This document shows positions 4,860 to 16,598 of a stretch of 38,823 nucleotides of DNA, in pieces (position 1 is the first letter of the stretch; each line of letters opens with the position of its first letter). The notes below the pieces were generated by a model. That model saw only the letters and a list, made by a program, of their open reading frames with translations, had not been told where the DNA came from and did not search any database. The position numbers were made by a program, and so were the translations under genes. The DNA is from Escherichia phage YZ1: the sequence record NC_047927.1, one strand, 5' to 3'.

Positions 4860-4873
4860 CAGGAGAGAGAGTT

Positions 4874-5089
4874 ATGAAATTTGCACACAAGCAGACTGGC
4901 GTTAAGGGTGGGACTCAAATCGTGACCGTAACAGAACACAACGGCAAGGGTCTGGTGAAGACCACGGTCATTCCTACCGAGATGTCAAAGCAGCTTAACG
5001 TCCCATTCAAGACCCTCGTCTATCTTGTGGAATCCAGCCACGAGAAATACCTGAAAGACGCAGTGACCAAGCTGGAGCAGACCAAATGA
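4874..5089 (+). CDS. Hypothetical protein (71 aa) immediately after the RNAP gene
   Basis: ORF with a good AGGAGAGAG SD 5-7 nt upstream of the ATG. Confidence 0.55.
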   Translation: MKFAHKQTGVKGGTQIVTVTEHNGKGLVKTTVIPTEMSKQLNVPFKTLVYLVESSHEKYLKDAVTKLEQTK

Positions 5090-5163
5090 CAGACCTACAG
5101 TTACTGGCCTTGTGGCTGGGAGCACTCGCAGTATTCACTTTAATCCAACGCAGAAGAGGTTAA

Positions 5164-5186
5164 CCTAAACTATCACTATAGGATTA
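5164..5186 (+). promoter_or_regulatory. Phage RNAP promoter (T7 phi1.1-like position)
   Basis: CTAAACTATCACTATAGGATTAG, predicted +1 G at 5181. Confidence 0.75.
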
Positions 5187-5226
5187 GACTCAAGGTCATG
5201 ACCCAAAGTCGTGGCCTTCATGATTA
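5185..5226 (+). promoter_or_regulatory. Conserved hairpin copy 1 (putative RNase III site, T7 R1.1 position)
   Basis: TAGACTCAAGGTCAT-loop-GTGGCCTTCATGATTA; AAGGUCAU pairs with GUGGCCUU including G-U pairs. Same motif recurs at 12045 and 35468. Confidence 0.6.
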
Positions 5227-5263
5227 ACCCTAACCTAGCGTAAACTACTGGAGATTTAACAAC

Positions 5264-5443
5264 ATGTATCAGAACACTATCAACTTCGAGCGCATCCGTG
5301 AACGTCAGAAGACTGAAGGTTACATTCCGAAGGGCCGCAAGCTGAATAAGACCAAGCGTGGCGGTGGTGTCAAGGGTGCTTTCCGTAACGCTGAAGGCAA
5401 AGACTCTATGGTCAACCGAGAGAAGTATTTCGTAGGAGCGTAA
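5264..5443 (+). CDS. gp1.1-like small basic protein (59 aa)
   Basis: Not in the ORF track (<60 aa). Contains KGRKLNKTKR, matching T7 gp1.1 as I remember it; SD GGAG upstream. Confidence 0.6.
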   Translation: MYQNTINFERIRERQKTEGYIPKGRKLNKTKRGGGVKGAFRNAEGKDSMVNREKYFVGA

Positions 5444-5446
5444 GAC

Positions 5447-5698
5447 ATGAGCAGACGTTGGGTATTCGATGCGTCCACCAGCCAGTGGTCATCGTTAGGC
5501 CGGACACACCGCGAGATGAGAGAGGCAGGACTTGAGGTCAGAATGGATGTCCTGCCGTGCTCCGGAAAGACTCTGGTCAGAGTAATTGAAGCAGATGGTG
5601 GGAGGCTTCTGGTCTCCAGAGAATTTACCGAAGATGAAATCTTTAGCTGTGAGCAATGGTGCTTACAACAATTGAACGCTTATAGGAGCTGGAAATAA
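5447..5698 (+). CDS. gp1.2-like protein (83 aa; T7 gp1.2 is a dGTPase inhibitor)
   Basis: Position between gene 1.1 and ligase; C-terminal ...YRSWK resembles the T7 gp1.2 C-terminus ...LKDWK. Assignment is mainly by synteny. Confidence 0.5.
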   Translation: MSRRWVFDASTSQWSSLGRTHREMREAGLEVRMDVLPCSGKTLVRVIEADGGRLLVSREFTEDEIFSCEQWCLQQLNAYRSWK

Positions 5699-6771
5699 TG
5701 ACTACGACTATTAAAACTAACCCGCACCGCGCTGTAGATTACTCTGAGTCTGGCGTTAAGAAGGCACTGGATGCTGCCGGGTCTCTCGAAGCTGAAGTGA
5801 AGTACGACGGTGTTCGGTTGAATCTTCCGGTCTTCCCTACTGGTGAGACTCAATGGTTGAGCCGTGAGTCTAAACCTCTCCCAGCCCTTGAGTGGCTGTC
5901 AGTCCTTACCAACATCGACAACATCGTCGGGGACCAGCAAAAAGCTAGCGACTGGCGGTGGTTCCTGAAGCAGGCTGGCTACGAAGGCACTGGTCTGATG
6001 ATTGACGGTGAGGTCATGGTAAAAGGAGTGGACTTCAATACGTCTTCAGGTCTCATCCGAACGAAGTGGGTAAAGCAAAAGAACTTTGAGTTTTCAACTG
6101 GTGAGCACTGGGGTAAGGACCGGACGAAAGAGAAGCTACCATTCTGTCTGGACCAGAGGTTCATCAAGGTGGTCGTCTACGGTATAGTGGACCTTAACGT
6201 CATCCTTGACCCGAAATCCGAAGGTCCTATTCATAGCGTCACACGCCTGAAGGCCGAAGCTATAGTCCCTCTCCTCCAGAAATACTTCCCTGAAATCGAC
6301 TGGGTTCTGTCTGAGTCACACACGGTCTATGACCTTGAGTCGCTCAACTCCCTGTACGAAGAGAAGCGGCTGGAAGGACATGAGGGTCTGGTAGTCAAGG
6401 ACCCGCTGGGTAAGTGGAAGCGTGGTAAGAAGTCAGGCATGTGGAAAATGAAGCCTGAGGATACCATTGATGGGACTGTGTGTGGACTCGTGTGGGGGAC
6501 TCCGGGTAAGGCTAACGAAGGTAAGATCATCGGCTTTGAGGTCCTACTGGAAGATGGCATGGTGGTTAACGCCTGCGGCCTGACTGAAGCTCAGAAGGAC
6601 GAGTTCACGGAAGCCTGTAACACTGACACATATATCCTTGGTGGTGTCAATCCTTACGAGGGCTGGCAGTGCGAAGTATCCTACATGGAGCGATTCCCTG
6701 ACGGCTCACTGCGTCACCCTAGCTTCAAGTGCTGGCGCGGGACGGAAGATAACCCGACCATTAAGAGCTAA
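5698..6771 (+). CDS. ATP-dependent DNA ligase (T7 gene 1.3 homolog, 357 aa)
   Basis: N-terminus IKTNP..AV closely matches T7 ligase; KYDGVR adenylation motif (motif I lysine). Confidence 0.93.
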   Translation: MTTTIKTNPHRAVDYSESGVKKALDAAGSLEAEVKYDGVRLNLPVFPTGETQWLSRESKPLPALEWLSVLTNIDNIVGDQQKASDWRWFLKQAGYEGTGLMIDGEVMVKGVDFNTSSGLIRTKWVKQKNFEFSTGEHWGKDRTKEKLPFCLDQRFIKVVVYGIVDLNVILDPKSEGPIHSVTRLKAEAIVPLLQKYFPEIDWVLSESHTVYDLESLNSLYEEKRLEGHEGLVVKDPLGKWKRGKKSGMWKMKPEDTIDGTVCGLVWGTPGKANEGKIIGFEVLLEDGMVVNACGLTEAQKDEFTEACNTDTYILGGVNPYEGWQCEVSYMERFPDGSLRHPSFKCWRGTEDNPTIKS

Positions 6772-7776: not shown

Positions 7777-7935
7777 ATGAGCCTTGAAGAAAAGAAGTAC
7801 ATCGTGGAGCTTGAGGGTCGCGTTCAGTCCTTCGAGGTTCCGGTGTACGCAAAGTCTCTTGAAGAGGCTACCCTGAAGTCCCAAGAGTATGAGGACGCTG
7901 GTTTTGTGGTCGGTCGGATTCGTCCTGAGACCTAA
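7777..7935 (+). CDS. Gp2-like inhibitor of host RNA polymerase (52 aa)
   Basis: [33 protein letters not shown] aligns with T7 Gp2 [34 protein letters not shown] (from memory), including the conserved Arg in the (V/I)R(V/I)RP motif. SD GGAAGGAG upstream of ATG 7777; the longer track ORF from 7714 lacks an SD. Confidence 0.7.
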
Positions 7936-9840: not shown

Positions 9841-10056
9841 ATGATTAAACTTATTGAATTTCTTGGTCGTCTGGTGGTGCGTGGTTATCGTCGTGCTGCG
9901 GTACTGGAACGAAAGGTAGAAAAGAAGACTGCTGACAGTGCGGCTGATGCTGCTGCTCTGGCTGACAAGCTGACCATCGCGTCACTGGAAGCTGGCATGA
10001 AGGCACGTCAAGCTGACACCAAAGCTGACCAGTTGGCTCAGTTCTTCAAAGCCTAA
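9841..10056 (+). CDS. Hypothetical protein (71 aa, Ala-rich, predicted coiled coil)
   Basis: ORF with AAGGAGAA SD 8 nt upstream. Confidence 0.5.
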   Translation: MIKLIEFLGRLVVRGYRRAAVLERKVEKKTADSAADAAALADKLTIASLEAGMKARQADTKADQLAQFFKA

Positions 10057-10075
10057 ACTATCACCTTAGGGATGG
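10053..10075 (+). promoter_or_regulatory. Phage RNAP promoter-like sequence (degenerate, CACCTTAGG) upstream of the primase-helicase gene
   Basis: GCCTAAACTATCACCTTAGGGATG; two core mismatches at -4/-3, so probably weak. Confidence 0.4.
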
Positions 10076-10121
10076 GACCATTAGTCCTGTCCCTTTGTTC
10101 GCATTTGTGACTAAGGAGTGA

Positions 10122-11825
<1,704 letters not shown>

Positions 11826-11876
11826 ATGTCAATGCCCTGAGTGCGACTGGAAGTCCCCATACGGAGGACATCATTA

Positions 11877-12041
11877 GTGTTTAAGAAACTTAAAGCTCGC
11901 TACCATCGGTTCATGTACAAATGGTGGAGTGATGAAGCAACCTGCCTGTCCAACATTCTGGGAGACCAGAGGTTCGACTCTAAGGCATGGAAGAAAGCTA
12001 ACCGGAAGTTTATGTATCACTTCTTGCGTACAGACTTCTAG
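11877..12041 (+). CDS. Hypothetical small basic protein (about 54 aa, GTG start)
   Basis: GGAGGA 9 nt upstream of GTG at 11877 (the track ORF begins at 11841); T7 gene 4.x region. Confidence 0.3.
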   Translation: MFKKLKARYHRFMYKWWSDEATCLSNILGDQRFDSKAWKKANRKFMYHFLRTDF

Positions 12042-12044
12042 GTC

Positions 12045-12084
12045 TAGACTCAAGGTCATTCACATCGAGTGGCCTTTATGATTA
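12045..12084 (+). promoter_or_regulatory. Conserved hairpin copy 2 (putative RNase III site, T7 R4.7 position)
   Basis: TAGACTCAAGGTCAT-loop-GTGGCCTTTATGATTA immediately upstream of the DNA polymerase gene. Confidence 0.6.
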
Positions 12085-12104
12085 GACTAAACGGAGGATT
12101 AACC

Positions 12105-14276
12105 ATGTTTGACCTTAAGAGTATCTGGGGTTCTGACATAGAGACCAACGGTCTCCTTGATACAGTCTCCCAGTTTCACTGTGGGGTCCTGATTAACGCC
12201 GAGTCGAATGAGACCCTTAAGTATGGGGTAGCTCCGATGGTCGGTATCGTCGGTGGCTTCAAAGAGTATGTACAGAAGGTGGAAGAGATTGCCGCATCAC
12301 CTGATGGTATGCTGGTATTCCACAACGGTATCAACTATGACGTCCCGTCTATTGACAAGCTGAAGCGTCTGTACTGTGGGAAACGCTTTAACTTCCCGAA
12401 ACACAAGATGATTGATACCTTGGTGCTGGGACGCTTGATGTATCCAAACATTAAGTTCTCAGACATGGGCGCAGTGAAAGCTGGTCGTCTGCCACCTAAG
12501 ATGATGGGACGCCAGTCTCTTGAGGCTTGGGGCTATCGTCTCGGTGAGATGAAAGGTGAGTACAAACACGATTACGTTGCCAAGTGCAAGGCTGAAGGTA
12601 TCGAATATAAGGCTGGGGACGAATGGTTGTTCCCATCTCAGGAGATGCTAGACTATAACGTTCAAGACGTTGTGGTCACACTGGCGTTGTTCAAGAAGTT
12701 CCTGACTGACAAGTATTACTTCCAGTCTGAACAGTTCGCTTTCGACCAGATTTATGCGTTGCGTCTGGAACATGATGCTGCGTGGACCTGTGCGAAGATG
12801 GAACGTAACGGCTATCCGATGAACACCGAGATGGTCGAAGGCTTATATCGTGAACTCACCGTCAAACGTGCAGAGTTGTTGGACAAGCTGCGTTCGACTT
12901 TCGGCAGCTGGTACGCACCAAAGGGAGGCAAGGAGTTCTTCAAGCACCCACGGACAGGCAAGGACCTTCCGAAGTATCCGCGAGTCGTGTATCCTAAGGT
13001 CGGGTCAGTATTCAAGAAGCCGAAGAACAAAGCTCAACGCTTAGGTCTGGAACCTTGCGAGTTCGACTCACGAGACACGATGGAGGGAGCGCCGTTCACA
13101 CCTATCACTTACGTTGAGTTTAATCCGGGAAGCGGAGACCACTTAGCGAAAGTCTTGATGGAGCGTGGTTGGGAGCCTGTGGACTTCACTGACACTGGGA
13201 AACCTGTAGTCGATGACGAGACGTTAGAACACGTTAAGCTACCAGACGCAGAGGCTCAGGCTTGCGTAGAGCTGGTCCGTGAGTATCTGGTAGTCCAGAA
13301 GCGCATAGGTCAGGCGGCTGAAGGTAAGAACGCATGGTTGAAACTTGTAGGTCCAGACGGACGTATGCACGGTTCAATCAACCCATGCGGTGCAGTAACA
13401 GGACGTGCGACTCATAGTTCACCAAACATGGCTCAGGTCCCTGCTAACGGTGCTCCGTATGGTGAGATTTGCCGTGGTGCTTTCGGTGCAGCTTGGAACA
13501 AGACGGATGGTAAGCCAGACCCTTGGATTCAAGTGGGTGTGGATGCTTCAGGTCTTGAGCTTCGTTGTCTGGGGAACCGAGCAGCTCCGTTTGATGGTGG
13601 TGCCTATGCGAAGACTGTGGTCGAAGGTGACATCCACTGGGCCAACGCAGTAAACGCTGGTTTAGCACCTAACGTCCCACGCGATAAATCGAACCACGAC
13701 CATGATGCTTTCCGTAACAACGCTAAGACGTTCATCTATGCGTTCCTGTATGGTGCAGGGGCCGCTAAGATTGGACTGATAGTCGGCGGTGGTAAGAAGG
13801 AAGGTTCAGCTCTCATGAAGAAATTCATTGAGGGTACACCAGCCATCAAGGACCTCAGGGAAGCTGTGAGTAATACGTTAATCTCAGACTCTAAGTGGGT
13901 GGACGGAGAGAACATCGTCAAGTGGAAACGCCGTTGGTTGCGTGGACTTGATGGTCGCCGTATCCACATCCGGTCGCCACACTCAGCACTGAACGCCTTA
14001 CTTCAAGGTGACGGTGCGGTAGTCTGTAAGCACTGGATTGTCGAGACTGAACGTATGCTTGAAGAGGCAGGGTATGTTCACGGCTGGGAGGGAGACTTTG
14101 CGTACATGGCTTGGGTGCATGATGAATTGCAGATTGCGTGTCGTACTCAGGAGATTGCCGAAGAAGTCGTCAAGATTGCGCAACTTGCTATGCGTAAGGT
14201 GGGTGAGTTCTATAACTTTAAATGTGTCCTTGATACGGAGGGTAAGATTGGACCAACGTGGAAAGAATGCCATTGA
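12105..14276 (+). CDS. DNA polymerase, family A (T7 gene 5 homolog, 723 aa from ATG 12105)
   Basis: Exonuclease motif DIETNGL, polymerase motifs NPCGAVTGRATHSSPN, AKTFIYAFLYGAG, YMAWVHDE, C-terminal GPTWKECH; colinear with T7 gp5. Start set at ATG 12105 (SD ACGGAGGA) rather than the track GTG 12069, which lies inside the upstream hairpin. Confidence 0.96.
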   Translation: MFDLKSIWGSDIETNGLLDTVSQFHCGVLINAESNETLKYGVAPMVGIVGGFKEYVQKVEEIAASPDGMLVFHNGINYDVPSIDKLKRLYCGKRFNFPKHKMIDTLVLGRLMYPNIKFSDMGAVKAGRLPPKMMGRQSLEAWGYRLGEMKGEYKHDYVAKCKAEGIEYKAGDEWLFPSQEMLDYNVQDVVVTLALFKKFLTDKYYFQSEQFAFDQIYALRLEHDAAWTCAKMERNGYPMNTEMVEGLYRELTVKRAELLDKLRSTFGSWYAPKGGKEFFKHPRTGKDLPKYPRVVYPKVGSVFKKPKNKAQRLGLEPCEFDSRDTMEGAPFTPITYVEFNPGSGDHLAKVLMERGWEPVDFTDTGKPVVDDETLEHVKLPDAEAQACVELVREYLVVQKRIGQAAEGKNAWLKLVGPDGRMHGSINPCGAVTGRATHSSPNMAQVPANGAPYGEICRGAFGAAWNKTDGKPDPWIQVGVDASGLELRCLGNRAAPFDGGAYAKTVVEGDIHWANAVNAGLAPNVPRDKSNHDHDAFRNNAKTFIYAFLYGAGAAKIGLIVGGGKKEGSALMKKFIEGTPAIKDLREAVSNTLISDSKWVDGENIVKWKRRWLRGLDGRRIHIRSPHSALNALLQGDGAVVCKHWIVETERMLEEAGYVHGWEGDFAYMAWVHDELQIACRTQEIAEEVVKIAQLAMRKVGEFYNFKCVLDTEGKIGPTWKECH

Positions 14277-14664
14277 CGGAAAGTCCCAGCACTTCACTGG
14301 TGCTGCTAGTGAGTTATATGTAAGCTATAGACTGACAGCCAAAGGGCATCAAGTATTCCTCCCAGCATTCACGCAGTCAAAGGCAGACTTGGTGGTCGAT
14401 ATAGACGGGACCCTTACGAGGGTTCAGGTCAAGACCGGAACGAAGCTGAAGAACTGTAATAGCATACAGGTAAGACTGGGAGGATGCGGTAAGCCAACTT
14501 ACAGTCCTGGAGACATAGACCTACTAGCGGTTGTCTATCAGGATTTACTCTGGCTTATACCGTTCACTGAAGAGGTTAGAGTCAAGACCTCTATGTGTAT
14601 AAACTTAACGTCTGACAAGAAGTACGGACAATTTAAACAGGAGAAGACTAATGGCTATTACTAA
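14248..14664 (+). CDS. Putative nuclease-like protein, PD-(D/E)xK / Hjc-like motif arrangement (about 138 aa, proposed TTG start)
   Basis: Open frame continues past the polymerase stop with no ATG; TTG at 14248 has GGAGGG 5 nt upstream. Motifs ASELYV ... KADLVVDIDG ... VQVKTG resemble the E...D...(E/Q)xK layout. Contains AGA/AGG Arg codons, unlike the core genes. Confidence 0.35.
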   Translation: MDQRGKNAIDGKSQHFTGAASELYVSYRLTAKGHQVFLPAFTQSKADLVVDIDGTLTRVQVKTGTKLKNCNSIQVRLGGCGKPTYSPGDIDLLAVVYQDLLWLIPFTEEVRVKTSMCINLTSDKKYGQFKQEKTNGYY

Positions 14665-14938
14665 ACGTATTCGTGTAAGTTTCGACCTGAAGATGGTTGT
14701 TAGCTCAAAGAAAGAAGAGACCATGTGTCACCAACTGGCTGAGGTGACTAAAGCCTACGCTAAGGGTGAGAAGCTGGATGGATTTCAGTTGGCTCTGGTC
14801 AAAGCAGCAATCGAGTCAGGCCCTGAGTCTGCCCTCGAGATTGCCACCAAGAAGGCCATCAAGGAGGGGCTGGTGGCCGCCTTTGATGACTACCAGGTCA
14901 GCGGTGTGTCCAACCTGCGATTCGAGGTCAAGCAATGA
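14651..14938 (+). CDS. gp5.5-like protein (95 aa; T7 gp5.5 binds host H-NS)
   Basis: N-terminus MAITKRIRVSFDL resembles T7 gp5.5 MAMTKKFKVSFDV (from memory); syntenic. Confidence 0.65.
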   Translation: MAITKRIRVSFDLKMVVSSKKEETMCHQLAEVTKAYAKGEKLDGFQLALVKAAIESGPESALEIATKKAIKEGLVAAFDDYQVSGVSNLRFEVKQ

Positions 14939-15144
14939 GTGAATACTTACGGGTCCTAGCGGCCCTTAAGTCCTGCCCGAAGACCTTCCAGTCCAACTAT
15001 GTGCGCAACAACGCTGCACTGGTGGCTGAGGCTGCGAGCCGTGGGCATCTAAGCTGCCTGTCTATGGATGGGCGTAACAACGGTGCGTGGGAGATTACCG
15101 CTGCTGGCACCAAGTTCCTGAACCAACACGGAGGCTGTCTATGA
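14935..15144 (+). CDS. gp5.7 homolog (69 aa)
   Basis: MSEYLRVLAALKSCPKTFQSNYVRNNAALVAEAASRGH is near-identical to T7 gp5.7 as remembered; same length. Confidence 0.8.
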   Translation: MSEYLRVLAALKSCPKTFQSNYVRNNAALVAEAASRGHLSCLSMDGRNNGAWEITAAGTKFLNQHGGCL

Positions 15145-15590
15145 AGATACCTGAAAGTCTGAAAGAGCTGATCCTTGAAATTGGCGAGTGCGATATGGAG
15201 CACCGCAAGTACGCTGAGTTCTACGCCTCTTGGTCATTCACCCTGACTGAGAAGGATGTTGAGGCCTACGCCGAGTCTCACGCTGAGGCCTATGAGTGGC
15301 GTCCATTCATCGGGCTGACCATCGTAGCCAGTGGTATGTGGAGTGACAGCCATGGTTCAGAGGTAAATGACTGGGGCGTATATCGCCAAGTTGAGAAGGA
15401 GACCGAAATGTCTTCCAACTTCTGGAGCCTGATGTCACACCTAAACTCAGAGGACAACGACATGGCCCATGAGTTCGCCAACAAATGGCTGAAGCCTGAG
15501 GTGACTCTCGAACGTATTGAGGAGCCGAAAGTGCCCTTGATGCCATATGCAGTCGCTATGGCTACAGGAGGTCTGGACGATGGGTGCTGA
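15141..15590 (+). CDS. Hypothetical acidic protein (149 aa) in the gp5.9 slot
   Basis: ATG at 15141 overlaps the gp5.7 stop (ATGA); strongly acidic composition; overlaps the start of the exonuclease gene as T7 5.9 does. Confidence 0.55.
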   Translation: MKIPESLKELILEIGECDMEHRKYAEFYASWSFTLTEKDVEAYAESHAEAYEWRPFIGLTIVASGMWSDSHGSEVNDWGVYRQVEKETEMSSNFWSLMSHLNSEDNDMAHEFANKWLKPEVTLERIEEPKVPLMPYAVAMATGGLDDGC

Positions 15591-16449
15591 GAAGAAGATA
15601 GCTCTTGTTCTTGATGGCGATTACCTAGTATTCTCTTCTATGGCTGCTGCCGAGGACGAGACAGACTGGGGTGATGACATCTGGACCCTTATCTGCGACC
15701 ATGAGAAGGCTCGCCGTATCCTTGAGAACACCATCGCTGAAATCGTTAAGAAGCGCAAGGCGTGGAAAGACGCTAAGATTGTGATGTGCTTTACTGACGA
15801 TAATAACTGGCGTAAGGATATTCTTCCTACCTATAAGGCCAACCGTAAAGGTTCTCGCAAGCCTGTAGGTTACAAGAAGTTCGTAGCCGAAGTGATGGCT
15901 GACCAACGGTTCAATAGCTTCCTGCGTCCTACGCTTGAGGGTGATGACTGTATGGGTATCATCGGTACCCGACCCCAGATTGTCGGATGTGACCATGCGG
16001 TTCTGGTGTCCTGTGATAAGGACTTCAAGACAATCCCGAACTGTGAGTTCTTCTGGTTAACCACTGGTGAAATCCTGAGTCATACGACTGCTGAGGCAGA
16101 CTACTGGCACATGGAGCAGACCATCAAGGGAGATACTACAGATGGCTACGGTGGCATTCCTGGAATGGGTGAGGACACCACTCGTGTGTTCCTTGACGAG
16201 CCGTACTACTTCGTGCAGGAGAGCCGTGAGCTTAAGACTGGCAAGAACAAAGGCCAGATTAAGACTGGGTGGAAGAAGTATCCGAAGCGTGAAGACATGA
16301 CGCTGTGGGACTGCATGGTTACACTGGCTGCTAAGGCTGGCATGACCGAGGAGGAACTTCTGGTCCAAGCTCAGGTCGCTCGTATTTGTCGAGCATCTGA
16401 CTATGACCCTAAGTCCAAGGAGGTCATCCTATGGACACCACCCATGTAA
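15580..16449 (+). CDS. 5'-3' exonuclease (T7 gene 6 homolog, 289 aa from ATG 15580)
   Basis: LVLDGDYLVF, NWRKDILPTYKANRK, LEGDDCMGIIG, SCDKDFKTIPNC, TIKGDTTDGYGGIPG, SGKNKGQ, TLWDC..AKAGMTEEE colinear with T7 gp6; SD CAGGAGG 8 nt upstream of 15580. Confidence 0.93.
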   Translation: MGAEKKIALVLDGDYLVFSSMAAAEDETDWGDDIWTLICDHEKARRILENTIAEIVKKRKAWKDAKIVMCFTDDNNWRKDILPTYKANRKGSRKPVGYKKFVAEVMADQRFNSFLRPTLEGDDCMGIIGTRPQIVGCDHAVLVSCDKDFKTIPNCEFFWLTTGEILSHTTAEADYWHMEQTIKGDTTDGYGGIPGMGEDTTRVFLDEPYYFVQESRELKTGKNKGQIKTGWKKYPKREDMTLWDCMVTLAAKAGMTEEELLVQAQVARICRASDYDPKSKEVILWTPPM

Positions 16450-16575
16450 TTTACTGGGTCGGACTTCTTGCCCTTTACTGCATGTACAAGTGGTTCGGGT
16501 CGAACAACCGCCCTAAACACTGAGTCTAGCCGATAGTCATATCCTATCAATCCAACAGTCATCCATAGGTGAAAC

Positions 16576-16598
16576 ACTAAACTATCACTATAGGGACT
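16576..16598 (+). promoter_or_regulatory. Phage RNAP promoter (T7 phi6.5 position)
   Basis: CTAAACTATCACTATAGGGACTT, predicted +1 G at 16593. Confidence 0.75.

Follow-up and report, generated by a model that had tools for sequence, protein, structure and literature searches.

A 29-residue module connects an acidic protein from a cassette hotspot of Escherichia phage YZ1 with long gp5.9-like proteins

Introduction

The genome of Escherichia phage YZ1 (sequence record NC_047927.1; its 38,823 bp are the window analysed here) encodes, between gp5.7 and gene 6, a strongly acidic protein of 149 amino acids (aa), gp22, at the place where phage T7 carries the gene of the RecBCD inhibitor gp5.9. In this work, we found that gp22 can be assigned to PHROG 4382, that 29 of its residues align with the N-terminus of long gp5.9-like proteins, and that the junction in which its gene lies is a hotspot for interchangeable cassettes. 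We propose, with a probability of about 40%, that gp22 is a non-enzymatic acidic binder of a host DNA-handling complex, with RecBCD as the first candidate, and an alternative to gp5.9-type proteins.

RecBCD occupies a central place in bacterial immunity, and phage RecBCD inhibitors also trigger retrons and other guard systems. To our knowledge, few architectures of such inhibitors are known: Gam, gp5.9 and Abc2. The gp5.9 protein of T7 binds the arm of RecB and blocks DNA-end binding by RecBCD. The cryo-electron microscopy structure of the complex has been reported, RecBCD being blocked by DNA mimicry (PMC9836394), and T7 gp5.9 also inhibits MukBEF (PMC7617805).

The gene of gp22 is already annotated, as hypothetical, and its family is already present in PHROGs, so that gp22 is not a new object. 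The module that links it to gp5.9-like proteins, the evidence from gene pairs and fusions and the multi-allele nature of the slot have no earlier mention in the papers and annotations that were searched.

Results

The acidic protein gp22 and its gene

YZ1 is a K1F-like relative of T7 in the genus Kayfunavirus, and its nearest DNA matches are Kayfunaviruses of about 95% identity. The open reading frame (ORF) of gp22 runs on the + strand from an ATG at 15141 to a TGA at 15588-15590, and an exact protein look-up identified its product as YP_009798544.1, "hypothetical protein HOS81_gp22". The strongly acidic character that an initial annotation had ascribed to this 149-aa ORF was borne out: with 29 Asp+Glu (19.5% of the residues, counted over the sequence) against 12 Lys+Arg, the protein has a net charge of -17 and a low isoelectric point (pI) of 4.5. 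Per residue, it is the most acidic product of YZ1 (-0.114/aa), followed by the scaffold protein (-0.105).

The same annotation had described the gene as the positional counterpart of T7 gene 5.9, and both flanks were confirmed (Table 1), the gp5.7 protein of YZ1 being identical to that of K1F. The stop codon of gp5.7 (TGA, 15142-15144) overlaps the ATG of gp22 by 4 nt in an ATGA coupling. Gene 6 most likely starts at the ATG at 15580, giving an 11-nt overlap with gp22, because a GGAGG motif is present at 15567-15571 and the resulting N-terminus, MGAEKKIALVLDGDY, aligns with that of K1F gp6, MSDKKIALVLDGDY. Both couplings had been read correctly by the initial annotation, although the overlap geometry that it called identical to that of T7 is only similar: T7 has a TAATG overlap of 1 nt between 5.7 and 5.9 and one of 14 nt between 5.9 and gene 6. 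Around the gp22 gene no Rfam match was found, and sigma-70 promoters and terminators were in no excess on either strand.

gp22 belongs to a widespread acidic family

The match of gp22 to PHROG 4382, a family of unknown function, had E = 5e-48 and placed residues 1-130 on profile positions 6-129 of 130. Homologues were found in 168 phage records. A search of the family profile against 1.84 billion representative proteins retrieved only 55 clusters, nearly all of 100-160 aa; a match of 2358 aa (P0126) is a eukaryotic NACHT-LRR protein and was rejected as spurious. Kayfunavirus members are 80-95% identical to gp22. Members from Klebsiella Przondovirus, Eapunavirus and Dickeya Aarhusvirus are about 43% identical to it and always occupy the slot between gp5.7 and gene 6 (hereafter the 5.7/6 slot), while in Felix-O1-like Ounavirinae (Suspvirus, Mooglevirus and relatives) the gene is invariably found between nrdD and nrdG and overlaps nrdG by 1 nt. 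A 91-kb soil phage contig (L008, 3922-5342) encodes a core-only member of 113 aa directly downstream of a 360-aa gp6-like phrog_107 exonuclease with a 4-nt overlap; this order, exonuclease then family member, is the reverse of that in T7-like phages.

All 127 small family members are acidic, with a mean net charge of -0.11/residue, even at less than 25% identity, and members that keep the conserved motifs reach down to 23% identity in several phage families. The conserved positions are E13, E16, E20-H21-R22-K23-x-S25-x-F27-Y28, G58 and G65-x-W67-S68-D69-x-x-G72-x-E74-x-x-D77. Klebsiella Przondovirus proteins of 127 aa, SUSP1 gp068 and Moogle gp14 are full-length homologues with both the motifs and the acidity of gp22; the T7-like members share its slot, and the Ounavirinae members have a diverged form of the module described below. 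Some members, of 113-122 aa, wholly lack this module, a 20-aa C-terminal tail is confined to members of Kayfunavirus type, and truncated versions exist (P0028, P0030, P0051 and a 32-aa remnant in phage LS2).

When gp22 was compared with its counterpart in phage phiYIO1-1 (15141-15587 versus L001 2003-2455), the ratio of nonsynonymous to synonymous substitution rates (dN/dS) was 0.14, with a dN of 0.038 and a dS of 0.27. By this measure, by its PHROG match and by its homologues, gp22 is encoded by a genuine gene under purifying selection. Both its dN and its dS were 2-5 times those of the flanking genes 5.5, 5.7 and 6 in the same comparison (dS of the neighbours, 0.06-0.12), and the cassette evidently has a history different from that of its flanks, being older or faster.

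No database record gave a credible function for the family, and its few named entries are evident mis-annotations; those that we noticed are "tail tube protein" (vB_CbrM_HP1), "baseplate hub assembly protein" (SH-Kp 152410) and "putative DNA methylase" (Henu12). Pfam had no family for gp22 at E <= 0.1 and none for 59 relatives, NCBIfam gave no match to gp22, and PADLOC gave only a 12-bit chance match. We found no paper that mentions phrog_4382 or the family accessions; the family is not covered by the accessory-gene screen preprint or the BASEL paper, and the accessions searched are not listed in the EVADES supplements. As a separate observation, the records "Enterococcus phage EFA-1" and "Staphylococcus phage MBBL139" hold Kayfunavirus genomes, for which the stated hosts are implausible.

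A 29-aa module is shared with long gp5.9-like proteins

A weak second PHROG match of gp22, to phrog_6163, covered residues 90-115 (E = 2.6e-4 with the whole protein as query, 2.7e-5 with the segment alone). This is the family of long gp5.9-like proteins, which is large, comprises proteins of 60-85 aa with the consensus M.LL..FD.LLSHLNSEEN.MA.EFR..L…L…GVDNW.GY…DDE and is extremely acidic (mean net charge, -0.20/residue). The profiles of the gp22 family and of the long family, which Pfam places in PF25708, align in hhalign over 29 columns (probability, 96.3%; E = 1.6e-9); in this alignment, residues 90-118 of gp22 correspond to residues 3-31 of GW1 gp35. In a six-frame translation of YZ1, the hidden Markov model (HMM) of the long family matched gp22 only, at 33.9 bits and with an alignment that ended at profile position 29 of 68; it also matched the T7-like family members of phiEap-1, Mysterion, L013 and phiYIO1-1. 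The AlphaFold2 (AF2) models of gp22 and of GW1 gp35, the latter predicted to consist of three helices, both show the module as a helix, an SHLNSE-N loop and a second helix.

The long proteins GW1 gp35, Tian gp115 and PP101 orf49 are like gp22 in sharing the module F..LMSHLNSE(D/E)N.MA.EF and in being very acidic. They differ from it in the remainder of the chain: they have a C-terminal L..L...GVDNW.GY unit, the core of Pfam family PF25708, whereas gp22 lacks the GVDNW motif and has an 88-aa beta-rich core. A few records label long gp5.9-like proteins "putative host recBCD nuclease inhibitor"; the literature searched, including the PP101 paper, contained no experimental basis for this label and no tests of the long proteins. 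The record of GW1 gp35 is labelled "putative tail spike protein", and this label looks wrong.

Module and core also meet outside the T7-like phages. In Chaseviridae, a 130-aa gene of phrog_24684 lies directly downstream of a long gp5.9-like gene and overlaps it by 8 nt, as in PP101 orf49/orf50 (L024, 2501-3077) and Erwinia phage Y2 gp58/gp59 (L025, 1456-2098). The phrog_24684 proteins (Y2 gp59, PP101 orf50) appear to be distant relatives of the gp22 core, with a fold match in BFVD and without the inserted module; unlike gp22, they are encoded directly downstream of a separate long gp5.9-like gene. In a direct HMM comparison, the match between the core profile and phrog_24684 was not significant. 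A metagenomic protein, P0125, begins with the module and continues with a phrog_24684 domain. This domain is 30% identical to PP101 orf50, and its match to the profile of the gp22 family had E = 6.5e-5 in the search of 1.84 billion proteins. The gp22 family, P0125 and phrog_24684 have in common the signature E.E(H/Y)(R/S)K(H/Y)SS and a W..D..G..WD hairpin. The gene pairs, P0125 and gp22 thus show module and core arranged in three ways: encoded side by side, joined in an N-terminal fusion or, in gp22, present as a C-terminal insertion. Whole-genome scans of two Ounavirinae found the core gene without a long gp5.9-like gene in SUSP1 and the reverse in Tian; the YZ1 genome has the core gene only.

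gp22 is distinct from T7 gp5.9

The initial annotation had noted no obvious similarity between gp22 and T7 gp5.9, and this agrees with a BLASTP comparison (E = 9). Residues 87-128 of gp22 did not match PF25708 ("T7 gp5.9 RecBCD inhibitor"; gathering score, 24.5 bits) at E <= 10, whereas the controls T7 gp5.9 and GW1 gp35 scored 27.8 and 55.8 bits; Tian gp115 scored 57.1 bits. Nor was a gp5.9-like ORF found elsewhere in the YZ1 genome, either by tblastn with gp5.9 or by the six-frame search with the long-family HMM. By these searches gp22 is a member of PHROG 4382, and neither a member of PF25708 nor a homologue of T7 gp5.9. We noticed in addition that PF25708 gives T7 gp5.9 27.8 bits and GVDNW.GY proteins 49-76 bits; homology between these two groups merits separate verification.

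The two proteins are alike in their place between 5.7 and 6, in their transcription unit, in translational coupling on both sides, in dispensable accessory status and in strong acidity, the pI of T7 gp5.9 being 4.1. They differ in build: T7 gp5.9 is a 52-aa dimeric parallel coiled coil, whereas gp22 is predicted to form an alpha/beta domain, and the trait of the T7 gp5.9 family, an all-helical coiled coil of about 50-85 aa, is not seen in gp22. The remote homology search proposed in the initial annotation was productive in one respect, the module common to gp22 and the long gp5.9-like family, and gave no link to T7 gp5.9 itself. Homology to a protein of unrelated housekeeping function, named there as an outcome that would count against an anti-defence role, was found neither in Pfam and NCBIfam nor among solved structures.

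Predicted fold of gp22

The AF2 model of gp22 is an alpha/beta structure with five beta-strands and five helices (parts in Table 1). The core, whose motifs E-H-R-K-Y-S..F-Y and G.WSD..G.E are conserved, is the sole part common to all family members, and the module is confidently placed beside it, with a predicted local distance difference test score (pLDDT) of 79-85. Downstream, DNA identity to Vec13, which has a different gene in the slot ending in ...GGLDDGC, resumes at 15558 at a level of 98%; the last ~10 codons of gp22 (…GGLDDGC) therefore belong to a conserved gene 6 leader and not to the family.

A sequence search of the PDB with gp22 returned nothing meaningful, Foldseek found no match of the model to a solved structure in the PDB, and its fold matches in BFVD were uncharacterised relatives only, Y2 gp59 among them. 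Structure prediction had been suggested as a way to reveal likeness to a DNA mimic; the model resembled none of the known mimics compared (Ocr, ArdA, Gam, gp5.9, Ugi, Arn and others). Like the class of Ocr, ArdA, lambda Gam and gp5.9, gp22 is small, very acidic, phage-encoded and accessory, and it differs from that class in a predicted fold unlike any solved mimic and in conserved basic residues. Because relatives lie between nrdD and nrdG and the protein is acidic, a role as a flavodoxin-like electron donor for NrdG was also considered; the antiparallel hairpins of the predicted topology and the lack of a flavodoxin fold match led us to drop it.

The junction of gp5.7 and gene 6 is a cassette hotspot

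The 5.7/6 junction is a hotspot with at least eight interchangeable cassettes, and in K1F it is empty, the stop of gp5.7 overlapping the start of gene 6 directly. The gp22 gene is present in 53 of the 234 related records that share the flanks; the others have nothing or unrelated ORFs. The occupants sampled include a 72-aa basic protein (EcoDS1), a 92-aa protein (Vec13), an HNH endonuclease (pO91), two ORFs (Ro103C3lw) and a 42-aa Cys-rich ORF (216Ecol046PP). The occupant in ST63 (L017, 507-839) is again acidic (110 aa, net charge -15, pI 4.3); it belongs to phrog_18166 and weakly matches phrog_2294, labelled "ribonucleotide reductase". Its likeness to gp22 (GDWCDDHKSEV / GMWSDSHGSEV) was not significant (hhalign, 0.7%), and it was dropped as a lead, kinship with gp22 not being demonstrable.

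A long gp5.9-like gene of 66-77 aa occupies the slot in phages of three genera (Kayfunavirus GW1 and Kc166A, Przondovirus 175002 and Berlinvirus PcCB251), GW1 gp35 having been assigned by a scan against PF25708 and the other three alleles by tblastn. Closely related Klebsiella phages carry either a long gp5.9-like gene or a PHROG 4382 gene there. The direct repeat GAAGATA was observed at both borders of the YZ1 cassette, at 15141-15152 (ATGAAGATAcc) and at 15590-15603 (GAAGAAGATAgc, in gene 6), and in K1F (L007, 3180-3205) only as the gene 6 copy; it could be a microhomology footprint of cassette exchange.

Transcription unit and other features of the genome

The phage RNA polymerase promoter CTAAACTATCACTATAGG(G/A)A is present in 11 copies of ~26 nt each on the + strand, at 2079, 5157, 6848, 7924, 10045, 16569, 19393, 20392, 24732, 32008 and 38218, marking the transcription units of YZ1. 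The unit from 10045 to 16569 holds the gp22 gene with genes 4, 5, 5.5, 5.7 and 6.

Table 1. Features of the gp22 locus of phage YZ1 (positions in the window; predicted parts of the protein are given by their coding DNA)
Feature	Position	Strand	Basis or remark
Promoter copy opening the unit of genes 4 to 6 with gp22	10045..10070	+	CTAAACTATCACTATAGG copy
gp5.7 homologue, 69 aa, conserved left flank of the slot	14935..15144	+	phrog_1334, E = 7e-39; phrog_17900, E = 4.5e-46
Putative ribosome-binding site of gp22, GGAGG	15130..15134	+	6 nt before the ATG; read from the sequence
gp22 coding sequence, acidic protein, PHROG 4382 member	15141..15590	+	PHROG match, dN/dS 0.14
Predicted core domain, aa 1-88: helix, beta-hairpin, two helices, long beta-hairpin	15141..15404	+	AF2, pLDDT 86-91
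Predicted helix-loop-helix module, aa 90-118 (MSSNFWSLMSHLNSEDNDMAHEFANKWLK)	15408..15494	+	Profile matches to the N-terminus of long gp5.9-like proteins
Predicted final beta-strand, aa 119-127	15495..15521	+	AF2 strand at aa 120-125
Predicted disordered C-terminal tail, aa 128-149	15522..15587	+	pLDDT <50 for aa 129-149
Putative ribosome-binding site of gene 6, GGAGG	15567..15571	+	Inside the gp22 tail; read from the sequence
Gene 6, 5'-3' exonuclease, conserved right flank	15580..16449	+	phrog_107, E = 3e-79; PF02739
Next promoter copy (phi6.5 position), downstream limit of the unit	16569..16594	+	CTAAACTATCACTATAGG copy

A second variable slot was noticed between gene 5 and gene 5.5, where a ~139-aa ORF (14245-14664, +; phrog_5018, of unknown function) overlaps the end of the polymerase gene; phiYIO1-1 has only an ORF of 52 aa at this place, and in K1F an HNH gene lies inside gene 5. 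Among the early ORFs of YZ1 (300-2100 and 4870-5700, +), no homologue of Ocr (gp0.3) or of the gp0.7 kinase was recognised, and all of them fall into PHROGs of unknown function, an example being the 174-aa product of 778-1302 (phrog_11084). The dGTPase inhibitor gp1.2 (5447-5698) and the RNA polymerase inhibitor gp2 (7777-7935) are present.

Discussion

The gp22 gene is a genuine accessory gene that lies in the class II (DNA-metabolism) transcription unit of a K1F-like phage, one cassette among at least eight. Its product has three predicted parts, an acidic alpha/beta core (aa 1-88 plus the closing strand), the inserted module and a disordered tail whose coding DNA carries the putative ribosome-binding site and start of gene 6. 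We propose the following model. The protein would not be an enzyme and would act by stoichiometric binding to a host DNA-handling complex, RecBCD first, serving as a functional alternative to gp5.9-type proteins without homology to the T7 gp5.9 coiled coil. In this model, we infer the binding to a host protein, the choice of RecBCD or another DNA-binding machine as the target, and the acidic surface or the module as the mediator. The model is favoured by the slot and transcription unit that gp22 has in common with T7 5.9, by the cassette-like distribution of its gene, by long gp5.9-like alleles in this slot, by the shared module, by the Chaseviridae gene pairs and P0125, by the complementary presence of core gene and long gp5.9-like gene in SUSP1, Tian and YZ1, by acidity throughout the family, by divergence faster than that of the flanks at a low dN/dS, and by the lack of any enzyme match in Pfam, NCBIfam or PADLOC. 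The idea of the initial annotation that gp22 may be a larger DNA mimic or another anti-defence factor is partly supported.

Several observations weigh against this model. Acidity is common among small phage proteins, and the conserved tip of the hairpin (H21 R22 K23 Y24) is basic and aromatic, which is atypical of DNA mimics. Slot position alone is weak functional evidence because basic proteins and an HNH endonuclease are found in the hotspot too and in some phages it is empty, and the fixed location between nrdD and nrdG in Ounavirinae points to nucleotide metabolism. Moreover, the part of GW1 gp35 covered by PF25708 (aa 21-66) lies mostly past the shared module; P0290, which has two GVDNW.GY units and no module, still scores 76 bits on PF25708; and the module is missing from T7 gp5.9, the one member for which experimental data exist. 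The long-family profiles failed to detect T7 gp5.9 or its PDB chain, whether by hhalign, by HMM or in a profile search of the PDB, and the connection of the long family with RecBCD therefore comes from the Pfam model and from database-derived annotations. The chain from gp22 to the long family, to T7 gp5.9 and to RecBCD thus contains two inferential links, the second of them supplied solely by the curated Pfam model.

It is somewhat unlikely, in our view, that gp22 is a counter-defence or host-takeover binder directed at something other than RecBCD (restriction, abortive infection, MukBEF or a nucleoid protein, a nucleotide-depleting enzyme), the module then being a general scaffold or oligomerisation element. 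Such a role would be in keeping with a hotspot of many unrelated alleles, with fast divergence, with a family confined to virulent phages of several lineages and acidic throughout, and with the position of the module outside the PF25708 region. More than one target is indeed plausible, because T7 gp5.9 itself acts on both RecBCD (PMC9836394) and MukBEF (PMC7617805). However, the family shows no similarity to a known anti-defence protein or to a PADLOC or Pfam family, there is no pointer to any specific alternative target, and the recurrent association is specifically with gp5.9-like genes. A role in phage DNA or nucleotide metabolism, as an auxiliary subunit or a regulator that modulates a gp6-type exonuclease or ribonucleotide reduction, is improbable, although the gene is always in DNA- or nucleotide-metabolism operons and, in T7-like phages, its translation is coupled to that of gene 6. 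The soil phage member directly after the phrog_107 exonuclease, the Suspvirus and Mooglevirus members between nrdD and nrdG and the match of the acidic ST63 occupant to a PHROG labelled ribonucleotide reductase would also fit it. Yet T7-like phages encode no ribonucleotide reductase, the Chaseviridae relatives adjoin a dUTPase and a long gp5.9-like gene and neither an exonuclease nor a ribonucleotide reductase, and no cofactor-binding or enzyme signature was seen. K1F and most Kayfunaviruses, furthermore, lack the gene and keep gene 6, which makes it dispensable for exonuclease function.

The three arrangements of module and core, and the AF2 placement of the one beside the other, also agree with a partnership in which the core docks the module in trans in Chaseviridae (gp58 with gp59) and in cis in YZ1, for example to shield the inhibitor from host guard systems. 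We consider this quite improbable, since a gp5.9-like gene that could supply the partner is absent from YZ1 and SUSP1, the slot of GW1-type phages encodes the module but no core, and P0125 is a single cluster representative that could be a deletion product. That gp22 has no function, being a chance ORF or the remnant of a decaying gene, is hardly credible: truncated versions do exist, from P0028, P0030 and P0051 to the remnant in LS2, but the low dN/dS, the strength of the PHROG match, the conserved motifs in homologues of 23% identity, the gene's own putative ribosome-binding site and its translational coupling on both sides all argue otherwise.

Our preferred reading, a binder with RecBCD as the first candidate, can be extended to a bolder and rather unlikely form. 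In it, the PHROG 4382 core would be a counter-defence fold not seen before, and the 29-aa module a portable element that phages combine with this core or with a gp5.9-type coiled coil. Core and module would jointly neutralise RecBCD or its guard system, as neighbours in Chaseviridae or fused in T7-like and Felix-O1-like phages, and the 5.7/6 junction would be a hotspot devoted to countering RecBCD by several non-homologous means.

If the family acts on RecBCD or a related complex, it would represent a new fold among the inhibitors. It would also explain how K1F-like phages, Klebsiella T7-like phages and some Felix-O1-like phages without a T7-type gp5.9 handle RecBCD, and it would provide a function for a short module present in several hundred phage proteins. 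Should the hypothesis fail, it still holds that the gp5.7-gene 6 junction of Studiervirinae is a compact hotspot with precise bounds and at least eight alleles, handy for mining and swapping candidate anti-defence genes, including those of therapeutic Klebsiella and E. coli phages.

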